DNA from: Alphaproteobacteria bacterium
GTDB lineage: Bacteria; Pseudomonadota; Alphaproteobacteria; HIMB59; GCA-002718135
NCBI GenBank assembly: GCA_045560915.1
Contig: JBJKYT010000050.1
Coordinates: 9,926 to 73,925, forward strand
Length of the DNA: 64,000 bases
Reading direction: 5' to 3'
The translations under genes and the position numbers were made by a program. Each line of letters starts with the position of its first letter. The first letter of the stretch is position 1. The notes under the pieces were generated by a model, which saw only the letters and a program-made list of their open reading frames with translations, did not search any database and was not told where the DNA came from. Below, in pieces: positions 4,314 through 17,552 of the stretch.

Positions 4314-6290
4314 TTATTTTATTCTTTCTTTAATTAGTTTAGTCAATGCTTTTGAAGTTATTTCAAAATGTTCAAATAATTCTTTATATGGACCGCTAGC
4401 TCCAAAAGACTTCATACCTATAAAGTTTTCATTTGAAACATATTTTTCCCATCCATTTACTGCCCCAGCTTCAATGGCAAATAGTAATTTATTTCCTAAA
4501 ATTTCCATTTTTTCTTTTTTACTCTTTTTATCAAAAATTTCCCAACTAGGAAAAGAAATAACCCTAATATTTATATTTTCACTAGATAAAATTTTTGAAC
4601 TTTCACATGCTATCTCTACTTCTGATCCAGTGGCTAAAATAGTTCCTTGGTAATTTTCAAAATCAATTATAGGGTATGCTCCACTTTCAACTATATTTAT
4701 ATCATTATTTGTTCTAAGCATTGGAAGATTTTGTCTAGTTAAGACAATTACACAGGGAGATTGTGATTCCAGAGCATATTGCCAAGCTTCAATAGTTTCA
4801 ATAATATCTGAAGGTCTAATAACTGTTAAATTAGGTATTGCTCTAAGTGAAGCTAAATGCTCCACAGGTTGATGTGTGGGACCATCTTCACCAAGACCTA
4901 TGGAATCATGAGTCATTATATAAATTATAGGTAAATTCATTAACGCAGCCAATCGAATAGAAGGTCTACAATAATCAGTAAAGACTAAAAAAGTACCACC
5001 ATATGGTCTTAAGCCCCCATGTAAAGCCAAACCATTCATTATGGCTGCCATACCGTGCTCTCTAATTCCATAATAGATATATGATCCTTTAAAATCATTT
5101 TTACTAATATGGGCCATATTTTTTGTCTTAGTATTATTAGATCCAGTTAAATCAGCTGACCCTCCTACTAAATTTTCTAGCTCAGATGAAAAAAATTCTA
5201 TTGCTGTCTCACTTGCTTTTCTTGAAGCGCAGTTGGTTTTTTCTTTAAAATGTTTATTTTTAAATACTTTTAATTTGTCAATTATTTCATCTGATAAATT
5301 CTTTGAAAAAAAATCTTTATATTTTTTTGAAGAAATTGTATTTGCATTTTTGTCCATCCAATTTTGTCTAATTGTTTTATTCTTTATGGAAAAACTTCTC
5401 CATTTTGAAAGCATATCATCTGGAATTTCAAAACTATCAAAATTCCAATCTAAGTTTTTTCTAGTTAATTTAATTTCATCTTCTCCTAGAGGGGAGCCAT
5501 GAGAAGAAGATTTAGATTCTTTATTAGGGGAACCAAAACCTATTTTTGTTTTACACGCTATGATAGTAGGTTTTTCATTTTTTTTTGCTTTAATAATAGC
5601 TCTAGAAATTTCTTCATGATTATGCCCATCTATACTTATAGTATTCCATCCATACGACTCATATCTTTTTATTGTATTGTCAGAATTACTAAGTTCAGTT
5701 GAACCATCAATTGAAATAGAATTGTCGTCAAAAAAAACAATTAATTTTGATAACCCTAAATGTCCTGCCAAACTAGAAGCCTCATGGCTCAGGCCTTCCA
5801 TTAAACATCCATCTCCTGCAAAAATATATGTATAATGATCAAATAAATCTTTCCCAAACCTATTTTGTAAAATTTTTTCAGCAAGAGAAAAACCTACACC
5901 GTTTGCTAATCCTTGAGATAAAGGACCTGTAGTTGTTTCAATTCCTGCTAGATCCCCATACTCTGGATGCCCAGCTGTTGGAGAGCCTAATTGTCGGAAG
6001 TTTTTTATATCATTTAAAGTTATGTCTTTATATCCTGTTAAATATAATAGAGCATATAGAAGCATTGATCCGTGACCATTTGAAATAATAAATCTATCTC
6101 GATCTATCCAATGCGGATCATCTGGATCAAATTTTAAATGCTCCTTAAATAGAACTGTAGCAATATCAGCCATACCCATAGGCATACCAGGATGCCCTGA
6201 TTTAGCTGCTTGAACCGCATCAATTGCAAGAAATCTAATGCAATTTGATAATTTTTCATTTTCTGATAAATTTTTAATATTAGAAGTCAA
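4314..6290 (-). CDS. tkt: Transketolase
   Basis: 658 aa. SGHPGMPMGMA, GDGCLMEG (TPP motif) and THDSIGLGEDGPTHQP blocks. Confidence 0.97.
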   Translation of the reverse strand: MTSNIKNLSENEKLSNCIRFLAIDAVQAAKSGHPGMPMGMADIATVLFKEHLKFDPDDPHWIDRDRFIISNGHGSMLLYALLYLTGYKDITLNDIKNFRQLGSPTAGHPEYGDLAGIETTTGPLSQGLANGVGFSLAEKILQNRFGKDLFDHYTYIFAGDGCLMEGLSHEASSLAGHLGLSKLIVFFDDNSISIDGSTELSNSDNTIKRYESYGWNTISIDGHNHEEISRAIIKAKKNEKPTIIACKTKIGFGSPNKESKSSSHGSPLGEDEIKLTRKNLDWNFDSFEIPDDMLSKWRSFSIKNKTIRQNWMDKNANTISSKKYKDFFSKNLSDEIIDKLKVFKNKHFKEKTNCASRKASETAIEFFSSELENLVGGSADLTGSNNTKTKNMAHISKNDFKGSYIYYGIREHGMAAIMNGLALHGGLRPYGGTFLVFTDYCRPSIRLAALMNLPIIYIMTHDSIGLGEDGPTHQPVEHLASLRAIPNLTVIRPSDIIETIEAWQYALESQSPCVIVLTRQNLPMLRTNNDINIVESGAYPIIDFENYQGTILATGSEVEIACESSKILSSENINIRVISFPSWEIFDKKSKKEKMEILGNKLLFAIEAGAVNGWEKYVSNENFIGMKSFGASGPYKELFEHFEITSKALTKLIKERIK

Positions 6291-6371
6291 TTTAGCCTGC
6301 TTTCTTAGCTTTTATACTAATTATTAATTTCAATAAAGTGACAATTTAAAAAAATAAAACTATAATTAGCT

Positions 6372-6575
6372 ATGGAGATAGAAAAAGAAATAAATGTTTT
6401 AAAAAAATCAATCAAAGAATTAGAGCAATTAGTTGAAGAATTGATTGCAAGTTTAGAAGCCCAAAAACTAAGAGTTTCCAATAAAGAAAAAATTATATCT
6501 CAATTAAAAGATGATATTAGAAGCAATATTGAAAAAATAGATGAAATAATTGAAGAATATCATGCCAATACTTAA
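6372..6575 (+). CDS. Small coiled-coil protein (DUF4164/ZapB-like) upstream of zapA
   Basis: 67-aa heptad-rich ORF in the position that alphaproteobacteria conserve immediately before zapA. Confidence 0.55.
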   Translation: MEIEKEINVLKKSIKELEQLVEELIASLEAQKLRVSNKEKIISQLKDDIRSNIEKIDEIIEEYHANT

Positions 6576-6936
6576 AACAGAAATTTTAGGATTAGAAATA
6601 GAAATCAGTTATGAAAAACAAGACTATGATAAATTAATTCATTTAATTGAAAAATTTAAAAAAAGATTGTCTCAATTTTCTAATGATGGAAGAGCGAGCT
6701 CTAATCAGATATTATTTCTTGCTGCATTAAAAACGGAAGATGAATTAGAGACTATGAAAAAACAAATTGATGTAGAGGCAAATAAAGAAATAATTTTATT
6801 AAAAAAAGAATTAGAAAAAATAAAATCTTCAAGTATTTCTAGTATTCAAGATAAAACTTCATCTATAATTGAAATTAAAGAAATAGAAAAAATAACAAGA
6901 TTAATTCAAGACAGAATAAAAGAATCAGTTAAATAA
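6562..6936 (+). CDS. zapA: Cell division protein ZapA-like
   Basis: MPILKTEILGLEIEISYEKQDYDKL... and ...ILFLAALKTEDEL fit the ZapA pattern. The ATG at 6562 is preferred over the TTG at 6550. Synteny with the 5-formyl-THF cyclo-ligase supports the call. Confidence 0.65.
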   Translation: MPILKTEILGLEIEISYEKQDYDKLIHLIEKFKKRLSQFSNDGRASSNQILFLAALKTEDELETMKKQIDVEANKEIILLKKELEKIKSSSISSIQDKTSSIIEIKEIEKITRLIQDRIKESVK

Positions 6937-7511: not shown

Positions 7512-8296
7512 AGATAATTTTTGTAGGCGATATAGTTGGTAAGTCTGGAAGAAACGCTATTGAAAAAAAGTTACCTATAATAATAAAAAAATTTAATCCT
7601 GATGTTATAATCGCAAATGGAGAAAATGCTGCATCGGGTTATGGCTTAACAAAAAAAATAGCTAATGAACTTTTTGAAATAGGAGTTGATGTTATTACTT
7701 TAGGCAATCATTCTTGGGATCAAAAAGAAATGTTATCATATATTGAAGAGTGTCCAAAAATAATTAGAGCCTTAAATTATCCTAATGGAGTTCCAGGACG
7801 GGGTGAATATAAAATAGAATTAGAGGATGGGAGAACAATAATTATTATTCAAGTTCTGTTGAGATTGTTTATGGGCTTATCTGTTGATGATCCTTTTTCA
7901 ATTATAGAAAAAAGATTAAAAAAAGAATTTTTAGGTTCTTCATGTAACGCAATCTTGATAGATATGCATGGAGAAACAACATCTGAAAAAAACGCTTTTG
8001 GTCATTTTGTTGATGGAAAGGTTTCAGCTGTTTTGGGTACCCATACTCATGTTCCAACTTCTGATGCTAGAATTTTAGATAATGGTACAGCATATCAAAC
8101 AGATGCTGGCATGACTGGTGATTACAACTCAGTCATTGGAATGGAAAAAGATAATCCCATTCATTTATTCACAAAAGGATATCGTTTAGATGGTCGTTTT
8201 GTTTGCGCCAATGGAGAAGGCAAATTATGTGGTTCATACATAGAAACTGATGATAAATCTGGATTAGCGTTAAAAATTGAAGCTTTTCAATTATAA
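7508..8296 (+). CDS. YmdB-like metallophosphoesterase (TIGR00282 family)
   Basis: 262 aa. Motifs MKIIFVGDIVG, ANGENAASG, TLGNHSWD, GTHTHVPT and DAGMTGD. Confidence 0.88.
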   Translation: MKIIFVGDIVGKSGRNAIEKKLPIIIKKFNPDVIIANGENAASGYGLTKKIANELFEIGVDVITLGNHSWDQKEMLSYIEECPKIIRALNYPNGVPGRGEYKIELEDGRTIIIIQVLLRLFMGLSVDDPFSIIEKRLKKEFLGSSCNAILIDMHGETTSEKNAFGHFVDGKVSAVLGTHTHVPTSDARILDNGTAYQTDAGMTGDYNSVIGMEKDNPIHLFTKGYRLDGRFVCANGEGKLCGSYIETDDKSGLALKIEAFQL

Positions 8297-8386
8297 TTTT
8301 GCACATATTGGACACAATATTAATATATTTAAATCAAGTAATTAAAATACTTTACTAATTACGAACTAAATATTTATATAAGAATT

Positions 8387-9133
8387 ATGGCAGGACATTC
8401 TAAATTTAAAAATATAATGCATAGGAAAGGCGCTCAAGATAAAAAGCGTGCTAAAACCTTTTCTAGGCTTGGCAAAGAAATTGCAGTAGCTGTAAAAACT
8501 GGCGGAGCCGATCCTGAAAGTAACATACGTCTGCGATCTGCTATCAATACTGCAAAAAATCTTAATATGCCTAAAGATAATATAGAAAGAGCTGTTAAAA
8601 AAGGTGAAGGAAATGATCCTGATTCAAATTATGAAGAAGTTAGATATGAAGGTTATGGCCCAGAAGGAACGGCAATAATAGTAGAAGCAATGACAAATAA
8701 TAAAAATAGAACAGCTGCAGAGATTAGATCAATATTTAGTAAATCTGGTGGCAATATGGGAGAGAGTGGAAGTGTAAGCTTTGGCTTTAAAAGATTAGGA
8801 GTTATTACTGTTGAAAAAAATTTAGCAACTGAAGAAGAAATTTTTGATTTTTCTATAGAAAACGGTTCAGAAGATTTAGAAGTAAATGAAGAGGATTATG
8901 TTATTTATTGTGAACAAACAATTCTACATATTTTAAATAATAAAATTGTTTCTAAATTTGGTTCAACAAAATCTGCAGACTTAATGTGGAAAAGCGATAC
9001 CTCGGTTGAAGTAGAAAAAGACTCTGCAGAAAAATTATTTAAGTTATTGAATGCACTTGAAGATAATGATGATGTTCAGGGCGTGTCTTCTAATTTTGAA
9101 GTAAGTGAAGAAACACTTGCTTCTTTAACATGA
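8387..9133 (+). CDS. yebC: YebC/PmpR-family DNA-binding transcriptional regulator
   Basis: 248 aa. MAGHSKFKNIMHRKGAQDKKRAK.F and YEGYGP blocks. Confidence 0.95.
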   Translation: MAGHSKFKNIMHRKGAQDKKRAKTFSRLGKEIAVAVKTGGADPESNIRLRSAINTAKNLNMPKDNIERAVKKGEGNDPDSNYEEVRYEGYGPEGTAIIVEAMTNNKNRTAAEIRSIFSKSGGNMGESGSVSFGFKRLGVITVEKNLATEEEIFDFSIENGSEDLEVNEEDYVIYCEQTILHILNNKIVSKFGSTKSADLMWKSDTSVEVEKDSAEKLFKLLNALEDNDDVQGVSSNFEVSEETLASLT

Positions 9134-9148
9134 TAAGAAAGGAATTTA

Positions 9149-9460
9149 ATGCCAGATAAAGCATGGAAAAAAAGAGAGAGAGATGTAGCTGGATATTTTA
9201 AAGGAATGAGAACCCCTTTAAGTGGAGGAAATGGGAAGGTAACAAGGGCAGATGTTATTCACGATAGTTTATTTATAGAATGTAAATTAAGAGCTAAGCA
9301 CACTGTAGTTTCTTTATGGGATGAAACAGCTAAATTAGCAAAAGAGGAGGGAAAAACGCCTGTTATAGCTTTGTGTGAAAAAAATAGACCAGGTTTCTGG
9401 GTTATGGTTCATAGTAGTGATTTAGATAAATTAGAAAAAATAAAAGGTGAAAAAAATTAA
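9149..9460 (+). CDS. Small putative PD-(D/E)xK nuclease, Hjc-like Holliday-junction-resolvase candidate
   Basis: 103 aa with an AAAGGA RBS 6-11 nt upstream. The residue pattern E10 (KRERD), SGG, D35 and E44-C-K46 (FIECK) mirrors the E..D..ExK catalytic arrangement of archaeal/phage Hjc. It occupies the ruvC slot between yebC and tolQ. Confidence 0.5.
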   Translation: MPDKAWKKRERDVAGYFKGMRTPLSGGNGKVTRADVIHDSLFIECKLRAKHTVVSLWDETAKLAKEEGKTPVIALCEKNRPGFWVMVHSSDLDKLEKIKGEKN

Positions 9461-9463
9461 TTT

Positions 9464-10183
9464 ATGGAAGAAGTTAACATCGCATCAGAAATAGCATCAG
9501 GTTCAGTAGACTTTTCTTTTTTCACACTTTTTTTAAGAGCTGACTGGGTTGTTAAATCAGTAATAATTGTTTTAATTTTATCTTCTATATATTCTTGGAA
9601 TATTATTGTTGGTAAAATTATTAGAATAAATAGATTAAAAAAATTAGATGAGGAATTTGATGAAATTTTTTGGTCTGGTAATTCTTTTCATGATTTATAC
9701 GAAACATTTAATTATAATCAGTCAGACCCTAAATCTAAAATATTTTGTTCAGCAATTGCAGAATGGAAAAAAACCAATGCAGATACAAAAAACCTTAAAC
9801 CTGAAGAATTAAATTCTTTAAAAGAGAGAATGTTAAGAACAATGCACGTTACATTTAATAAAGAATCTGAAAATATAGAAAAAAATCTAACCTTTTTAGC
9901 AACTGCAGGATCAACTGCTCCTTTTATTGGTCTTTTTGGTACGGTTTGGGGAATTATGAATAGCTTTCAATCGATAGCTATTGCACAAAACACAAATTTA
10001 GCTGTTGTTGCTCCAGGAATAGCTGAAGCTTTGTTTGCTACAGCTCTAGGTTTATTTGTCGCTATTCCTGCAGTAGTGGCTTACAACAAAATTTCTAGTG
10101 ACTTATCTAAATATTTTATATCATTAGAAACTTTCATAGATGAATTTACAACAATCTTTTTTCGTCAACTAGAAAATAAATAA
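9464..10183 (+). CDS. tolQ: Tol-Pal system protein TolQ
   Basis: 239 aa. MotA/TolQ/ExbB motif LATAGSTAPFIGLFGTVWGIM and three TM segments. Confidence 0.93.
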   Translation: MEEVNIASEIASGSVDFSFFTLFLRADWVVKSVIIVLILSSIYSWNIIVGKIIRINRLKKLDEEFDEIFWSGNSFHDLYETFNYNQSDPKSKIFCSAIAEWKKTNADTKNLKPEELNSLKERMLRTMHVTFNKESENIEKNLTFLATAGSTAPFIGLFGTVWGIMNSFQSIAIAQNTNLAVVAPGIAEALFATALGLFVAIPAVVAYNKISSDLSKYFISLETFIDEFTTIFFRQLENK

Positions 10184-10184
10184 T

Positions 10185-10613
10185 TTGCAAACATTTAATC
10201 AAAAAAATTCGAGAAGAACAAAAAGATATTCTCAAATGAGTGAAATTAATGTCACTCCATTTGTTGACGTTATGCTTGTATTACTAATAGTTTTTATGGT
10301 TACAGCGCCCTTACTAACTGTTGGCATTCCTGTGGATTTACCTAAAGTTAAAGCTGATGCATTAACAGATCAAAAAGATCCTATAGAAATTACAGTTAAG
10401 CTTGATGGTTTAATTTATTTAGGAGAATCAGAAGTAGAAATTGAAAATTTAATACCTAGACTTAATGCTATAACTGATCAAAATACAGAAGCTAGAATTT
10501 ATGTTAGAGGTGATAGAGTGGTTGCTTACGGAAGGGTAATGGAAATAATGTCAATAATAAATTCTGCAGGCTATATAAAGGTAGCTTTAGTTGCACAAAA
10601 TCCTAGTGATTAA
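10185..10613 (+). CDS. tolR: Tol-Pal system protein TolR
   Basis: Contains the SEINVTPFVDVMLVLLIVFMV ExbD/TolR signature. The start is either TTG 10185 or ATG 10233. Confidence 0.9.
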   Translation: MQTFNQKNSRRTKRYSQMSEINVTPFVDVMLVLLIVFMVTAPLLTVGIPVDLPKVKADALTDQKDPIEITVKLDGLIYLGESEVEIENLIPRLNAITDQNTEARIYVRGDRVVAYGRVMEIMSIINSAGYIKVALVAQNPSD

Positions 10614-10616
10614 TAA

Positions 10617-11648
10617 ATGAATCAGTTTGTTGAAAAATACAGCAAGGTTTTATATTTTTTTGAAAATGTCAGAAGCGATTATTTAGGATTTTCTTTTTCT
10701 TTTTTTTTACACTTTGCTATTTTGTTGTTTGCTATTGGTATTCCAAACTTTTTTGAACCAAAGCCTATATATATACCTACAATTATTCCAATAGAGATTA
10801 TAAATGTTTCAGAAACTACTTCTATACCCAAAGAAGTAAAAGATATTAAACCCTCAGAATCTAAACAGGTTCAAATAAAAGAAAAAAAATTTAATTCATC
10901 AGAAACTCAAGAAATTAAAAAAATCGAAATAAAAGATAAGCCAAAAGTTAAAAATATTGAAGATGAAAAAAACATTAATATTAAAGAAGATGTTGAGATA
11001 AAAGAAAAAAAAACAATACCTAACGAGATAATAAAAAAAAAGATAGAACTTGAGACAACTAATTTTGAGAGCTTGCCTACAGAGAAAATAAAACCAAAGC
11101 TAAAACCTAAAATTAAACCTAAAATTATAGAAGATAATACAAAAACAGATGTATCCATAGAAGCAAAACCAAAACCAAAACCAAAACCTGAATTTGATAT
11201 AGCATCCATGTTAAAAGATTTAAGAAATGAAAAAACTACTCCAAAAGTAGATAATATTAATGAAGAAGAAGAAAAAGATATAATTAAAAAAGAAACTCAA
11301 GAGGTTGTAGAAGAAAAGGGAGCAGAACTATCTATAAGTGAAATAGATCTTGTTTTACAACAACTATCAAGATGTTTCATTGCTCCGGCTGGAGCTGAAA
11401 TAAATAAATCAATGTATGTTAAAATTTCAGCTAAAATTCAACGAAATAGAAGGGTTTTGAAGAATTCTATTCGTATTGTTGACACAAATATATCTAAAAG
11501 TAGTACTGTATATGGACCTATTACAGAAAGCGCTATGAGAACTCTACTTAATCCAGATTGCATTCCATTAAAACTTCCTGAAAATAAATATGAATTATGG
11601 AAAAATTTAACCATGAAGTTTGATTATAGTATAATGAGAGGCAATTAA
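10617..11648 (+). CDS. tolA: TolA-like envelope-spanning protein
   Basis: N-terminal TM segment, a long K/E/P/I-rich low-complexity linker with KP repeats, a globular C-terminal domain, and the position between tolR and tolB. Confidence 0.8.
   Translation: MNQFVEKYSKVLYFFENVRSDYLGFSFSFFLHFAILLFAIGIPNFFEPKPIYIPTIIPIEIINVSETTSIPKEVKDIKPSESKQVQIKEKKFNSSETQEIKKIEIKDKPKVKNIEDEKNINIKEDVEIKEKKTIPNEIIKKKIELETTNFESLPTEKIKPKLKPKIKPKIIEDNTKTDVSIEAKPKPKPKPEFDIASMLKDLRNEKTTPKVDNINEEEEKDIIKKETQEVVEEKGAELSISEIDLVLQQLSRCFIAPAGAEINKSMYVKISAKIQRNRRVLKNSIRIVDTNISKSSTVYGPITESAMRTLLNPDCIPLKLPENKYELWKNLTMKFDYSIMRGN
11091..11189 (+). repeat. In-frame short tandem repeats encoding (K-P-K-x)n within the TolA linker
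   Basis: AAACCTAAAATT x2 at 11103-11126 and AAACCA/AAACCT x4 at 11166-11189, read directly from the sequence. Confidence 0.85.
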
Positions 11649-11650
11649 AA

Positions 11651-12970
11651 ATGCGAAAATTTTTATTTTTTTTCATTACGATTATCTTGTTTAATAACAA
11701 AGTTTTATCTTTGGATTTAACAATTACTCAAGGAAGTATTAAACCTACTCCAATAGCCATAAGTAACTTTTTTTCCTCTACTGACTCAACATTTAGGATA
11801 GGTAAAGATATTTCAATGGTTATTTCAGATAATTTAGAACGCTCTGGTTTGTTTTTACCAATAGATCAAAAAGCTTTTATACAAAGCTCTAAGTCTTTAG
11901 CTCAAGGTCCTAGATTTGAAGATTGGAAAGTAATTAAATCTCAGCATCTTGTATCTGGCAAGATTAATAAAAAAGGAGACAAAATATCAGTAGAGTTTAG
12001 ATTATATGATGTTTTTGCTCAAAAAGAATTAATAGGCAAAAAGTATGAAACAACAGAAAAAAATTGGAGAAGAGTTTCTCATATTATTTCTGATGCAATT
12101 TTTTCACGACTTACTGGTGACAGTGGGTATTTTGATACCCGTATTGTTTATGTAGCAGAAACTGGTCCAAAAGATAATAAACAAAAGAGACTAGCAATAA
12201 TGGATCAAGATCAAGCTAATCATCGTTTTTTAACAGATGGATCTTACTTAGTTTTAACTCCGCGATTTTCTCCAAACTCTCAAAAAATTACTTACATGTC
12301 TTATATAAAAAGAAATAATCCTAGAGTTTTTATATTTGATATTGAAACTGGGCGGCAAGAAATCGTAGGTGATTTTCCTGGAATGACATTTGCACCACGT
12401 TTTTCACCAGATGGAAAAAAAATAGTTATGTCATATGCCGATCCAAAAATTGGTAATTCTGAAATTTATATTTTAGATTTAGCAACAAGAATATCAAAAA
12501 GAATTACAAATAGTTCCGCAATAGATGTCTCTGCCAGTTTTTCTCCAGATGGAAAACAAATTGTTTTCAATTCTGATAGAAGCGGCAGAAGGCATCTATA
12601 TATTACTTCTTTAGATGGTAAAAAAATTAAACGAATAAGTAGAGAAGCTGGAAGTTACTATACGCCAGTTTGGTCTCCTAGAGGTGATTTTATAGCTTTT
12701 ACCAAACAAGAAGGAGGACAATTTTATATTGGTGTAATGGAAGTTGATGGATCAAATGAAAGAATGATTGCTAAATCATTTCATGTAGAGGGCCCTACAT
12801 GGTCCCCAAATGGAAGATATTTAATGTATTTCAAGGAAGAACGTACTGCCGAAGATGGAAGTGGAGGAGAGTCCAGCCTATATTCTATTGATTTAACTGG
12901 ATATAACGAGAGAAAAATTATTACCCCTTTAGGTGGCTCAGACCCAGCATGGTCACCATTATTACACTGA
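11651..12970 (+). CDS. tolB: Tol-Pal system beta-propeller protein TolB
   Basis: 439 aa with a signal peptide. Repeated FSPDGK / WSP.G propeller blades. Confidence 0.95.
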   Translation: MRKFLFFFITIILFNNKVLSLDLTITQGSIKPTPIAISNFFSSTDSTFRIGKDISMVISDNLERSGLFLPIDQKAFIQSSKSLAQGPRFEDWKVIKSQHLVSGKINKKGDKISVEFRLYDVFAQKELIGKKYETTEKNWRRVSHIISDAIFSRLTGDSGYFDTRIVYVAETGPKDNKQKRLAIMDQDQANHRFLTDGSYLVLTPRFSPNSQKITYMSYIKRNNPRVFIFDIETGRQEIVGDFPGMTFAPRFSPDGKKIVMSYADPKIGNSEIYILDLATRISKRITNSSAIDVSASFSPDGKQIVFNSDRSGRRHLYITSLDGKKIKRISREAGSYYTPVWSPRGDFIAFTKQEGGQFYIGVMEVDGSNERMIAKSFHVEGPTWSPNGRYLMYFKEERTAEDGSGGESSLYSIDLTGYNERKIITPLGGSDPAWSPLLH

Positions 12971-13077
12971 ATCTCAACCTTTTTTAAAAAAAAATATATG
13001 AATTATATAAAAAAATGCTATTAAATCTTAGATTTATTAGATATCAAAAAGCATAATAAGTATTAAGGGAGTTATTA

Positions 13078-13611
13078 ATGTTTTATAAGATTTTATTATC
13101 AATTTTTCTAGCAGCTTTTATATCTGCTTGTTCAACTACACCAAAAGATACAGCTGGAGCATCTGGTAGTGGTTCTTCAAGTTCTGATCCTGCTTCTGGT
13201 GATGCAGATATTCTTACTGATTTAGAAAATACAGAATTAGGTGGCCCAAATGTAGAGCCGGGTTCACAAGAGGATTTAGTAGTTAATGTTGGAGACAGAG
13301 TATTTTTTGGTTATGACAGTTCAGAATTGGATTCAGATGCAAAGGAATTACTTCAAGATCAAGTTGCATGGATTAAACAACATAATGCTTCAATTACAAT
13401 TGAAGGACATTGTGATGAGCGAGGAACTAGAGAATATAACTTAGCATTGGGTGAAAAAAGAGCTCAAGCTGTTAAAAATTATATGACAAGTTTGGGAATC
13501 TCATCTTCACAAATTTCAACAATTAGTTTTGGTAAAGAAAGACCAGCAGTAGTTGGATCAAATGACGGTGCTTGGAGCCAGAATAGAAGATCAGTTACTA
13601 CTGTCAATTAA
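13078..13611 (+). CDS. pal: Peptidoglycan-associated lipoprotein Pal (OmpA family)
   Basis: Lipobox FISAC. The OmpA-like domain has GHCDERGTREYNLALGEKRA and WSQNRR. Confidence 0.95.
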   Translation: MFYKILLSIFLAAFISACSTTPKDTAGASGSGSSSSDPASGDADILTDLENTELGGPNVEPGSQEDLVVNVGDRVFFGYDSSELDSDAKELLQDQVAWIKQHNASITIEGHCDERGTREYNLALGEKRAQAVKNYMTSLGISSSQISTISFGKERPAVVGSNDGAWSQNRRSVTTVN

Positions 13612-14621: not shown

Positions 14622-15577
14622 AGATTCTACAAAACTCTTTCAATCAATATTTAAATAAAAATTATTTTTTTGAAAAAAAACCTAATATTGCTGTAGCAGT
14701 ATCTGGAGGTCCTGATAGCATGTGCTTAATTCATTTATTAAATAATTGGATAAATTTAAATAGAGGAAACTTAGTTGCTTTAATTATTGATCATCAATTA
14801 AGAAAAGAATCAAAAAAAGAATCACATTTGATAAAAAATTATTTATTGAAAAATAAGATTTCTACAAAAATTATAAAGATTAATAAAAAATTAGTAATTA
14901 AAAAAAATATGAAAGAAGCAAGAGAAAATAGATATGACAAGTTAATAAAATATTGTAATCGTAAAAACATCTTTCATCTATTTTTAGCACATCATTATGA
15001 TGACAATATAGAAACTTTTTTAATTCGTAAATTATCTGGTAGTAATTTTGAAGGCCTAAGAGGAATGCAGTATAAAAATGTTAATAATTCTATTCAAATA
15101 TTAAGACCTTTATTATTTAATACTAAAAAAGAAATTTTAGAATTTAATTTAAAAAATAAAATTTATTATCTTAATGATCCTAGTAACTTAAATATTAAAT
15201 ATACTCGAGTCGCTATAAGAAACTTTTTGAATAAAAATAAAATTCTTCATAAAAAAATAAAAAAAGATTTTGAAAAAATAGAAAAAAATTATCCTATTTA
15301 TATACAAATGGTTTATGAAATTTTTAATAAAATAATTATTAAAATAAATAATAAAAATATATTAATTGAATCTGACAGATTTTTTGAACACAATAAAGAA
15401 ATTCAAGTTAAGATAGTTGAAATAATTTATAAATTTTTAATGCCAAAAAGAGAATCAATTCGATCTATAAAAATTTATAATTTATTAGAAAATTTATTAT
15501 CAAAGAAAATTGTAAAGGCTAATTTAGGTGGTATTGATATCAAAAAGGATGATTTTTCGATTAATTTTGGCCTTTAG
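14618..15577 (+). CDS. tilS: tRNA(Ile)-lysidine synthase
   Basis: PP-loop motif AVSGGPDS, plus HHYDDNIETFLIR. Overlaps cpoB by 4 nt. Confidence 0.9.
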   Translation: MKILQNSFNQYLNKNYFFEKKPNIAVAVSGGPDSMCLIHLLNNWINLNRGNLVALIIDHQLRKESKKESHLIKNYLLKNKISTKIIKINKKLVIKKNMKEARENRYDKLIKYCNRKNIFHLFLAHHYDDNIETFLIRKLSGSNFEGLRGMQYKNVNNSIQILRPLLFNTKKEILEFNLKNKIYYLNDPSNLNIKYTRVAIRNFLNKNKILHKKIKKDFEKIEKNYPIYIQMVYEIFNKIIIKINNKNILIESDRFFEHNKEIQVKIVEIIYKFLMPKRESIRSIKIYNLLENLLSKKIVKANLGGIDIKKDDFSINFGL

Positions 15578-15645
15578 AGTAAGATAATTAATATTTAGCT
15601 ATTGTGTTTTTTTAATTAATTCCTATTTATATATAACTATTAAAA

Positions 15646-17552
15646 ATGAAAAATTTCAGTAAAAATATAATACTTTGGATCATTATTGGATTGCTTTTAG
15701 TTGCTCTTTTCAATCTTTTTCAAGGTACGTCCTCCAACAGAAATGCATCAAATATCTCATTTTCTGATTTTATTGTAGCTGTAGAGTCAGGTAATGTTTC
15801 AGAAGTAAATATTAGAGGAAACAATGTTGAAGGTTATTTTGAGGATGGAAGGCCATTCACCACACCACATATTCTCCTAATTATCCTGATATGGTTGAGA
15901 AATTAAATTCAAGTGGAGTTAAAATTACAGCTGAACCGTCAGATAGAGCAATGCATCCAATTTTAAGCATCTTATTATCTTGGTTTCCAATGTTATTGTT
16001 AATTGGTGTTTGGATTTTTTTTATGCGTCAAATGCAAGGTGGTGGTGGAAAAGCGATGGGTTTTGGTAAATCTAAAGCTAAACTTTTAAATGAAGCAGTT
16101 GGTAAAGTAACCTTTGATGACGTCGCAGGCATAGATGAAGCAAAACAAGAATTGGAAGAAGTTGTTGAATTTTTAAAAGATCCTAAAAAATTTTCTAGAT
16201 TAGGTGGAAAGATTCCTACAGGGGCCTTGTTAGTTGGTCCTCCTGGAACAGGAAAAACATTACTTGCTAGAGCAATAGCAGGTGAAGCAAATGTTCCTTT
16301 CTTTTCTATATCTGGTTCTGACTTCGTGGAAATGTTTGTAGGTGTTGGAGCTAGCCGTGTTAGAGATATGTTTGAACAAGGTAAAAAGAATTCACCATGC
16401 ATTATATTTATTGACGAAATAGATGCTGTAGGCCGTCATAGAGGAGCAGGTCTAGGAGGCGGTAATGATGAAAGAGAACAAACATTAAATCAATTATTGG
16501 TTGAAATGGATGGTTTTGAAGCCAATGCAGGAGTTATTATAATAGCTGCAACAAACAGACCAGATGTTTTAGACCCTGCTTTATTACGCCCAGGAAGATT
16601 TGATAGACAAATAACAGTTTCAAATCCTGATATTATTGGAAGAGATAAAATTTTGAAAGTTCATATTAAGAAGATTAAAGTTTCTCCAAAATTTGATTCC
16701 AAAATAATAGCAAGAGGCACTCCTGGTTTTTCTGGAGCAGATTTAGCAAATTTAGTAAATGAAGCAGCATTACTTGCTTCTAGAAAAAACAAAAGACTAG
16801 TAACTTTAGAAGATTTTGAAAGTGCGAAAGATAAAGTAATGATGGGAGCAGAAAGAAGATCTATGGTTATGACAGAAGAAGAAAAAAAATTAACTGCATA
16901 TCATGAAGCTGGGCATGCTATTGCTACAATTCATTCACCTGCCTCAGATCCAATTCATAAGGCAACAATTATACCTAGGGGACGTGCATTGGGTATGGTT
17001 ATGAGATTGCCTGAAAGAGATCAAGTTTCTATGAGAAAAGATCAGATGAAAGCACATTTGTTAATTGCTACTGGAGGCAGAATAGCTGAAGAGTTAATTT
17101 TCGGAAAAGACAAAATAACAAATGGTGCAGCAAGTGATATTCAAATGGTCACTAATCTAGCAAAACGAATGATAACTGAGTGGGGCATGAGTGAAAAACT
17201 AGGTCAATTAAGATATAATAATGACAGTGAAGAAGTTTTTTTAGGCCATTCTGTTGCTCAAAGTAAAAATAATTCTGATGCCACAGCAAAGATAATTGAT
17301 GATGAAATTAGATTTTTGGCTGATGAAGCAGAATCTAATTGTCGTAAACTAATCCAAGATAATATTGAAGAACTTCATATTATTGCTAAGGGATTATTAG
17401 AATATGAGACCTTAACAGGAGATGAAATAAAAGATTTGATTAAAGGAATTAAACCAAATAGAGATGACTTTGATAATGATATTACTCCTAGTCCTACTGT
17501 ATCAACCTCCGTTCCTAAATCAGGAAATACCATTAGACCTCAGACAAATTAA
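15646..17552 (+). pseudogene. ftsH: ATP-dependent zinc metalloprotease FtsH, reading frame broken as sequenced (fragments 15646-15906 and 15891-17552)
   Basis: The N-terminal TM and periplasmic part lies in frame 1. The rest lies in frame 0 and carries Walker A GPPGTGKT, the SRH and HEAGH. The frame change maps to the tandem CACCA-CACCA-CA at 15858-15869. Total length is 1907 nt, which is 2 mod 3. Confidence 0.93.

Follow-up and report, generated by a model that had tools for sequence, protein, structure and literature searches.

Resolving Holliday junctions is essential to recombinational repair and to chromosome segregation, and RuvABC is seen as the standard bacterial solution. RusA, which is a prophage resolvase, suppresses ruv mutants of E. 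coli and can stand in for RuvABC. Across the whole Firmicutes/Mollicutes lineage, the PD-(D/E)xK resolvase RecU is found in RuvC's stead (PMC3403352). Here we analyze a stretch of 64,000 nucleotides, which we will call the window, from the single-cell genome of an alphaproteobacterium of the HIMB59/AEGEAN-169 lineage (assembly GCA_045560915.1, contig JBJKYT010000050.1, positions 9,926 to 73,925 of the forward strand). In the window, a short open reading frame (ORF) lies between yebC and tolQ, which is where ruvC and its neighbors are found in some other Proteobacteria. The public annotation of exactly this protein is "hypothetical protein." On balance, we think that the ORF encodes a PD-(D/E)xK junction endonuclease that was domesticated from a phage and that displaced RuvC in situ.

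In about half of the bacteria that contain RuvC, yebC and ruvC are in one operon, and the gene neighborhoods in STRING link RuvABC with YbgC, TolQ, TolR, and TolB (PMC3403352). ruvC lies directly after yebC in several Alphaproteobacteria, such as SAR116 IMCC1322, and also in Midichloria; in Caulobacter, the distance from yebC to ruvC is about 4 kilobases (kb) (PMC3403352 Table S1). A preliminary description of the window had given the order yebC-ruvC-ruvA-ruvB-ybgC-tolQ for many alphaproteobacteria. This order does exist. It is intact in a metagenome locus (L186), where contiguous yebC, ruvC, ruvA, ruvB, ybgC (4HBT), tolQ, and tolR were confirmed with Pfam (expect value E = 6.8e-48 for RuvC), and the published tables give the adjacency of yebC and ruvC. 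In the SAR11 isolates HTCC1062, HTCC7211, and HIMB114, YebC is present and RuvC, RecU, RuvA, and RuvB are absent (PMC3403352 Table S1), so complete loss of RuvABC does occur in streamlined marine Alphaproteobacteria. When we searched the literature on HIMB59 and SAR11, with its supplements, for ruv genes, we found nothing besides that table, and the literature search found no paper that connects Hjc-like proteins with the HIMB59 clade.

In the window, a single gene of 312 nucleotides stands where a segment of roughly 3.5 kb (ruvC-ruvA-ruvB-ybgC) stands elsewhere. The gene and its immediate surroundings are:

8387..9133, forward strand: yebC (TACO1/YebC family; Pfam PF01709, E = 1.8e-51, and PF20772, E = 7e-32)
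9134..9148, forward strand: spacer of 15 nucleotides between yebC and the ORF, with a Shine-Dalgarno-like AAGGAA 5' of the ORF's start (read from the sequence)
9149..9460, forward strand: the ORF (103 amino acids, ATG start), predicted to encode a phage-derived PD-(D/E)xK (Hjc-like) nuclease, that is, a Holliday-junction or branched-DNA endonuclease
9464..10183, forward strand: tolQ (MotA_ExbB, PF01618, E = 3.7e-36), which starts 3 nucleotides past the ORF's stop

The preliminary description had placed an ORF of 103 amino acids 15 nucleotides past yebC and 3 nucleotides before tolQ, and both the sequence and the Pfam assignments of the neighbors bear this out. (The window's YebC is 42% identical to YebC from E. 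coli.) No terminator-like site was found between yebC and tolQ, and the ORF and tolQ probably share one operon.

The preliminary description also claimed that ruvA, ruvB, and ybgC are missing between yebC and tolQ, and we can confirm this for the window and for related genomes. Using tblastn with RuvA, RuvB, and RuvC from the annotated E. coli locus as queries, we found no orthologue within the 64-kb window; the sole match for RuvB is weak and is to the AAA domain of ftsH. In 80 genomes from the same clade, which are described below, none of ruvA, ruvB, or ruvC is found within ±6 kb of the ORF. ybgC is absent from between yebC and tolQ and from the window, and motif scans of the window for recG, recA, radA, and yqgF found none of these.

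The ORF is highly conserved across the clade. The window's copy is 100% identical to the copy in the single-cell genome AG-426-I04, and the relatives are assemblies from the HIMB59 / MarineAlpha5 (AEGEAN-169) clade. The ORF is encoded by 161 species-representative genomes, and we compared the synteny, identity, and nonsynonymous divergence (dN) of 80 of these loci. The order ymdB-yebC-ORF is kept in 80 of 80 loci, and tolQ and tolR follow in 79 of 80. Across these loci, the ORF's protein is 82-100% identical, as compared to 63-95% for YebC, 73-99% for TolQ (about 74% in most loci), and 62-95% for YmdB. Similarly, the ORF has the lowest mean dN in the neighborhood (0.074, vs. 0.10 for tolR, 0.17 for tolQ, 0.20 for yebC, and 0.24 for ymdB). 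Its dN/dS ratio is 0.03-0.08 (about 0.05; dS, the synonymous divergence, is saturated). It is single-copy and syntenic in the clade's genomes. The G+C content (GC) at the third positions of its codons is host-like (0.18), so the acquisition is old. The synteny, the conservation, the low dN/dS, and the host-like codon positions together indicate that the ORF is a core gene that is strongly constrained, long resident, and expressed-looking, and not a chance ORF.

Two of the loci are unusual. In the single-cell genome AG-457-I08 (locus L019), which is the one locus of the 80 where tolQ and tolR do not follow, the match to the window ends near the ORF's residue 95 (window position 9446), and an inverted copy of window positions 30047-24020 comes next (L019 2395-8397). 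This is probably either an inversion of about 20 kb that breaks where the ORF meets tolQ or else a chimera from single-cell amplification. The other locus (L006, NHJW02000023.1) is from a metagenome-assembled genome titled "Gammaproteobacteria bacterium TMED225." It contains ymdB-yebC-ORF-tolQ-tolR at identities that are typical of the clade, so the Gammaproteobacteria label is probably wrong.

To describe the protein family, we aligned 84 members that are 38-86% identical to the window's protein. (An exhaustive search with HMMER puts the size of the family at about 1040 clusters at 50% identity.) E10, R21, G26, D35, and K46 are invariant in this alignment, and conservation is 90% or higher at W6, K7, R11, A14, S25, E44, E67, K69, P71, and G82. 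The preliminary description had picked out E10 (in KRERD), S25-G26-G27-N28-G29, D35, and E44-C45-K46 (in FIECK) as the layout of an Hjc-type resolvase. All of these residues are at those positions, and the conservation of the four putative catalytic residues among homologues, which had been proposed as a check, was found as well. The codons for the conserved motifs, and the corresponding residues in Hjc from Pyrococcus furiosus (Pfu), are:

9176..9178, forward strand: codon for E10, the predicted first acidic catalytic residue, in helix 1; invariant in the 84 homologues; pairs with E9 of Pfu Hjc
9209..9226, forward strand: codons for R21 to S25-G26, the R-x-x-x-S-G loop; R21 and G26 invariant, S25 at least 90% conserved; pairs with R25-S-A-G-S of Hjc
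9251..9253, forward strand: codon for D35, the predicted metal-binding Asp of the PD motif; invariant; pairs with D33 of Pfu Hjc
9278..9286, forward strand: codons for E44-C45-K46, the (D/E)xK motif, in strand 3; K46 invariant, E44 at least 90% conserved; pairs with E46-V-K48 of Pfu Hjc

Among profiles, the protein matches phrog_2002, "Holliday junction resolvase" (E = 1.4e-8, with residues 3-95 aligned to positions 16-113 of the profile's 130). This profile is also matched by 74 of the 84 relatives (best E = 7.8e-11). The protein does not match Pfam's RuvC (PF02075) at E up to 1, which agrees with the preliminary description's claim that it lacks RuvC motifs. It does not match the Pfam models for RecU or RusA, and neither do any of the 84 relatives at E up to 0.1. 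It has no match in NCBIfam or PADLOC. PDDEXK_15 (PF24608, a putative PDDEXK endonuclease of phages) does not match the window's protein and has weak matches to 9 of the 84 relatives (best E = 0.0027), and just one of the 84 relatives reaches E = 0.028 for Pfam's Hjc model (PF01870).

We also compared the family to Hjc with hhalign. Our alignment of Hjc included the Thermococcales proteins along with Hjc from Archaeoglobus and Sulfolobus in PDB. (The query from P. furiosus is identical to PDB 1gef.) The comparison gave a score of 24.8 (P = 0.0018) and paired E10 with E9, R11 with R10, R21 with R25, D35 with D33, E44 with E46, and K46 with K48, as well as the "PV" strand that follows. As controls, 60 shuffles of the columns gave scores of 11.5 ± 2.0 (maximum 16.6) and the reversed profile gave 10.2; the real score is about 6.6 standard deviations above the shuffles. 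The match was weak when we used a single Hjc or the Thermococcales-only set, and adding the sequences from Archaeoglobus and Sulfolobus brought the four catalytic positions into register. Since the score is well above those of the shuffled and reversed controls, the likeness to Hjc is real but remote. As judged by sequence comparison, the family appears to be related to PF01870 and not to be a member of it.

Two other features of the family came up in these searches. The profile phrog_244, "RusA-like Holliday junction resolvase," is matched by 16 of the 84 relatives, none of which matches Pfam's RusA. We considered an identification as RusA and rejected it, given the lack of a Pfam match and the invariant E/D/ExK pattern, which is unlike RusA; the label of phrog_244 is probably functional rather than fold-based. 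Also, in relatives of 150-180 amino acids (P0123, P0129, P0139, P0141, P0143, P0151, and others), the C-terminal 60 or so residues, from the ExK strand on, are repeated after a complete first domain, and HMMER reports two matched stretches for these proteins.

The family's relatives point to phages as its source. All of the homologues from outside the clade that have readable flanking sequence (up to 80% identical) are in a phage or prophage, and the homologues at 53-80% identity are in prophage modules for replication or recombination or beside terminase genes. For example, in Pelagicoccus and in other prophage-like regions, the homologue is beside genes for DNA polymerase A, AAA_24, DUF669, helicase, Prim-Pol, DnaB, integrase, SSB, NinB, Thy1, or terminase. 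Phage contigs from IMG/VR encode homologues that are 79-80% identical and have a GC of 0.39-0.42, vs. 0.29 for the host. In one of these contigs (L097, positions 5130-6829), a small-terminase-like gene precedes the homologue and the large terminase, whose start the homologue overlaps, follows it; the portal gene is next. In podophage-like contigs with low GC (0.33; L231-L234), a homologue that is 75% identical directly precedes the large terminase, and genes for a T7-type head-tail connector and capsid are downstream. (These marine podophage-like contigs, L097 and L231-L234, with GC of 0.33-0.39, may infect HIMB59 or other low-GC plankton.) Resolvases or debranching nucleases of phages are usually encoded at the boundary between the replication and packaging genes. 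Three homologues (P0132, P0148, and P0135) are on contigs of 1-3 kb and have little informative flank. In a neighbor-joining tree, the sequences from the host group as a single clade, which is nested among those from phages. The simplest reading is a single ancient transfer from phage to host, followed by fixation. The preliminary description had raised a phage origin as a possibility, and the phage and prophage flanks of the homologues and the nested host clade support it strongly.

These results suggest the following mechanism. The ORF would encode a small member of the PD-(D/E)xK (restriction-endonuclease-like) superfamily, a DNA endonuclease that requires Mg2+ and is specific for structure. 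The ancestor of the HIMB59/AEGEAN-169 clade would have taken the gene from a phage; between yebC and tolQ, the captured gene would have taken the place of ruvC-ruvA-ruvB-ybgC, and it would have been under strong purifying selection since. By analogy with Hjc, a homodimer may bind Holliday (four-way) junctions or other branched intermediates of recombination or replication. E10, D35, and E44 of each subunit are predicted to hold a metal ion, while K46 might activate or position water, and R11, R21, and the S25-G26 loop might contact the DNA. The two subunits would nick opposite strands in a pair, which would leave ligatable duplexes. Phage-type resolvases select structure, not sequence, so a search for a cognate sequence, driven by RuvAB, would not be needed. 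We infer the replacement of RuvC from the ORF's position and family. The predicted nuclease most likely does the clade's junction cutting. A stronger version, in which the clade lost RuvA, RuvB, and RuvC entirely and this protein of 103 amino acids is its sole enzyme for processing Holliday junctions, is possible, and we would put it forward only tentatively.

AlphaFold with a shallow alignment gave a model (predicted local distance difference test, or pLDDT, of 73) with the element order alpha-beta-beta-beta-alpha-beta-beta-alpha, as in Hjc, and Foldseek found weak matches of this model to Hjc (1gef, 2wiw/2wj0) and to tRNA-splicing endonuclease (E of 4e-3 to 8e-2). The model from a deep alignment (pLDDT of 89.8) matches predicted phage proteins in BFVD, some of which are named Holliday junction resolvase, with template modeling (TM) scores of 0.6-0.77. 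Several results weigh against our interpretation, and some of them are from this same model: DSSP finds only short strands in it, and Foldseek found no significant match to it in PDB, and no nuclease (the best row for Hjc has E = 3.1). Overall, the predicted structures give a mixed picture as to an Hjc-like fold. Sequence searches of PDB gave no useful match, whether we used the protein alone or the profile of its family. The score for Pfam's Hjc model is 12.2 bits (E = 0.18), which is under the gathering cut-off of 21.1, and the hhalign probability for Hjc is just 15%. The name of phrog_2002 derives from a homology prediction, not from an experiment. Several of the closest phage homologues adjoin terminase, which is also compatible with a nuclease that is related to packaging. 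Finally, we scanned metagenome contigs for RuvB with an AT-biased DNA pattern for Walker A. Among the matches listed, most were from unrelated low-GC organisms, all that could be identified were from Dehalococcoidia or Flavobacteriaceae, and nothing was assignable to the HIMB59 clade. Overall, the preliminary description is partly supported and for the most part right, its phage origin included: the match to phrog_2002 and the residues in register with Hjc argue for an Hjc-like PD-(D/E)xK protein, while Pfam's cut-off for Hjc is not reached and the best model does not retrieve any Hjc.

The RuvB searches also turned up an abundant marine RuvB (L158 and L237-L243; a cluster of 214 sequences with GC of about 0.33) in the context uvrA-ruvB-queA-ispD-ispF. 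It could not be assigned to an organism and is evidence neither for nor against RuvB in the HIMB59 clade.

Three other explanations fit the conservation, the synteny, and the invariant catalytic residues less well. A nuclease could have been domesticated from a phage for another job, such as degrading phage or foreign DNA, nucleotide salvage, or the processing of DNA ends, and might be in the ruvC slot merely from an insertion that accompanied the deletion. This would fit with the placement of several relatives directly upstream of the large terminase and not in a recombination module; also, all of the placeable relatives outside the clade are phage genes, PD-(D/E)xK nucleases act on many substrates, and the functional label is from homology only. 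However, phage resolvases are typically at the replication-packaging boundary too, and the best match to a characterized family is to Hjc, with both catalytic and DNA-binding residues in register. As for defense, no PADLOC defense model matches, and none of the 80 genomes has a methylase, immunity, or antitoxin partner gene. It would also be unusual for a defense gene to be single-copy and syntenic and to exceed the housekeeping genes beside it in conservation. We consider another job for the nuclease to be unlikely. It is similarly improbable that RuvABC, or RuvAB with another resolvase, is encoded elsewhere in HIMB59 genomes and that the ORF is an auxiliary or back-up resolvase, comparable to RusA from the cryptic prophage in E. 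coli. Our view covers 64 kb of the source genome and ±6 kb in 80 relatives, gene order near tol-pal varies among bacteria (as with the 4 kb or so between yebC and ruvC in Caulobacter), and RuvAB is near-universal in free-living bacteria (PMC3403352). But the whole ruvC-ruvA-ruvB-ybgC block is gone from its canonical place in all of the clade's genomes that we examined, for which one deletion is the simplest explanation, and SAR11 isolates do lack RuvA, RuvB, RuvC, and RecU (PMC3403352 Table S1). Nor would one expect a dispensable back-up to have a lower dN than all of its neighbors.

The ORF's proximity to tolQ raises another possibility, which is that its protein is a nuclease-dead DNA-binding factor, or a factor associated with Tol-Pal or cell division, that is co-transcribed with tolQRA-tolB-pal. 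The gap of 3 nucleotides without a terminator is consistent with this, and so is the ORF's place directly upstream of tolQ, which ybgC holds elsewhere. We think this is very unlikely, as all of the catalytic residues show no or almost no variation in host and phage homologues alike and the protein has no membrane or thioesterase feature. Furthermore, the linkage of RuvABC to tol in other bacteria is positional, without known functional coupling (PMC3403352). We therefore return to a junction endonuclease that took RuvC's place as our preferred explanation.

The surrounding genes in the window are in the order zapA, 5-FTHF cyclo-ligase, ymdB, yebC, the ORF, tolQ, tolR, a tolA-like gene, tolB, pal, a TPR gene (cpoB-like), tilS, and ftsH. 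Besides the features that are listed above, these include:

8270..8348, forward strand: sigma-70 promoter-like matches in the ymdB-yebC spacer, a candidate start for a yebC-ORF-tol transcript (consensus matches only, with no enrichment over shuffles)
10185..13611, forward strand: tolR, the tolA-like gene, tolB, and pal, which are the rest of the Tol-Pal cluster (ExbD/TolR, TolB_N + PD40, and OmpA domains)

ftsH (window 15560-17552) seems to be frameshifted. The N-terminal transmembrane/periplasmic part ("MKNFSKNIILWIIIGLLLVALF...GRPFTTP") stops near 15,880, and the remainder is an ORF of 553 amino acids in another frame (15891..17552; AAA + Peptidase_M41). This is probably an error in the single-cell assembly and not a pseudogene.

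A whole abundant marine lineage has a phage gene fixed exactly where ruvCAB normally is. If our interpretation is correct, this is a clean natural case in which a domesticated phage enzyme displaced a non-orthologous one in situ. The gene's product, which is annotated as "hypothetical protein" in marine genomes and metagenome contigs by the hundreds, now has a predicted function, and biochemists would have a candidate junction-cutting enzyme of very small size. If this protein is indeed the clade's only such enzyme, then a minimal resolvasome, without a branch-migration motor, would be fixed in an abundant ocean lineage, and there might be a general route for streamlined bacteria to trade a three-protein machine for a single phage gene. 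Given the SAR11 isolates without RuvA, RuvB, RuvC, or RecU, our results reopen how streamlined marine Alphaproteobacteria process recombination intermediates.

How does the ORF compare to known resolvases? Its closest characterized relatives are the archaeal Hjc resolvases (PF01870; Pfu Hjc, PDB 1gef). The two are of similar size (103 amino acids vs. about 120-140), have E...R...S-G...D...E-x-K in the same order and in register, followed by a hydrophobic "PV" strand, and share the predicted order of elements (in the pLDDT 73 model). However, the ORF is only about 23% identical to Hjc over the aligned columns, and its family is from bacteria and phages, while Hjc is archaeal. The match to phrog_2002 is near full-length, and homologues of up to 80% identity are on phage contigs, but the window's gene is chromosomal and is not in a prophage: it is fixed between yebC and tolQ in an order-level clade. 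With RuvC, the ORF shares a place in the genome (directly after yebC and upstream of tol-pal, as in other Proteobacteria) and a predicted substrate, but RuvC has an RNase H-like fold that is unrelated to the ORF's protein, and there is no ruvA or ruvB beside the ORF. The ORF's enzyme is probably independent of both sequence and RuvAB. RecU and RusA are precedents for the kind of event that we propose, although recU is far from ruvAB while the ORF is inside the ruvC slot itself, and RusA's fold differs from that of the ORF's family. With some confidence, then, we place the ORF with the remote Hjc-like PD-(D/E)xK resolvases of phages, as a member that was domesticated in situ.

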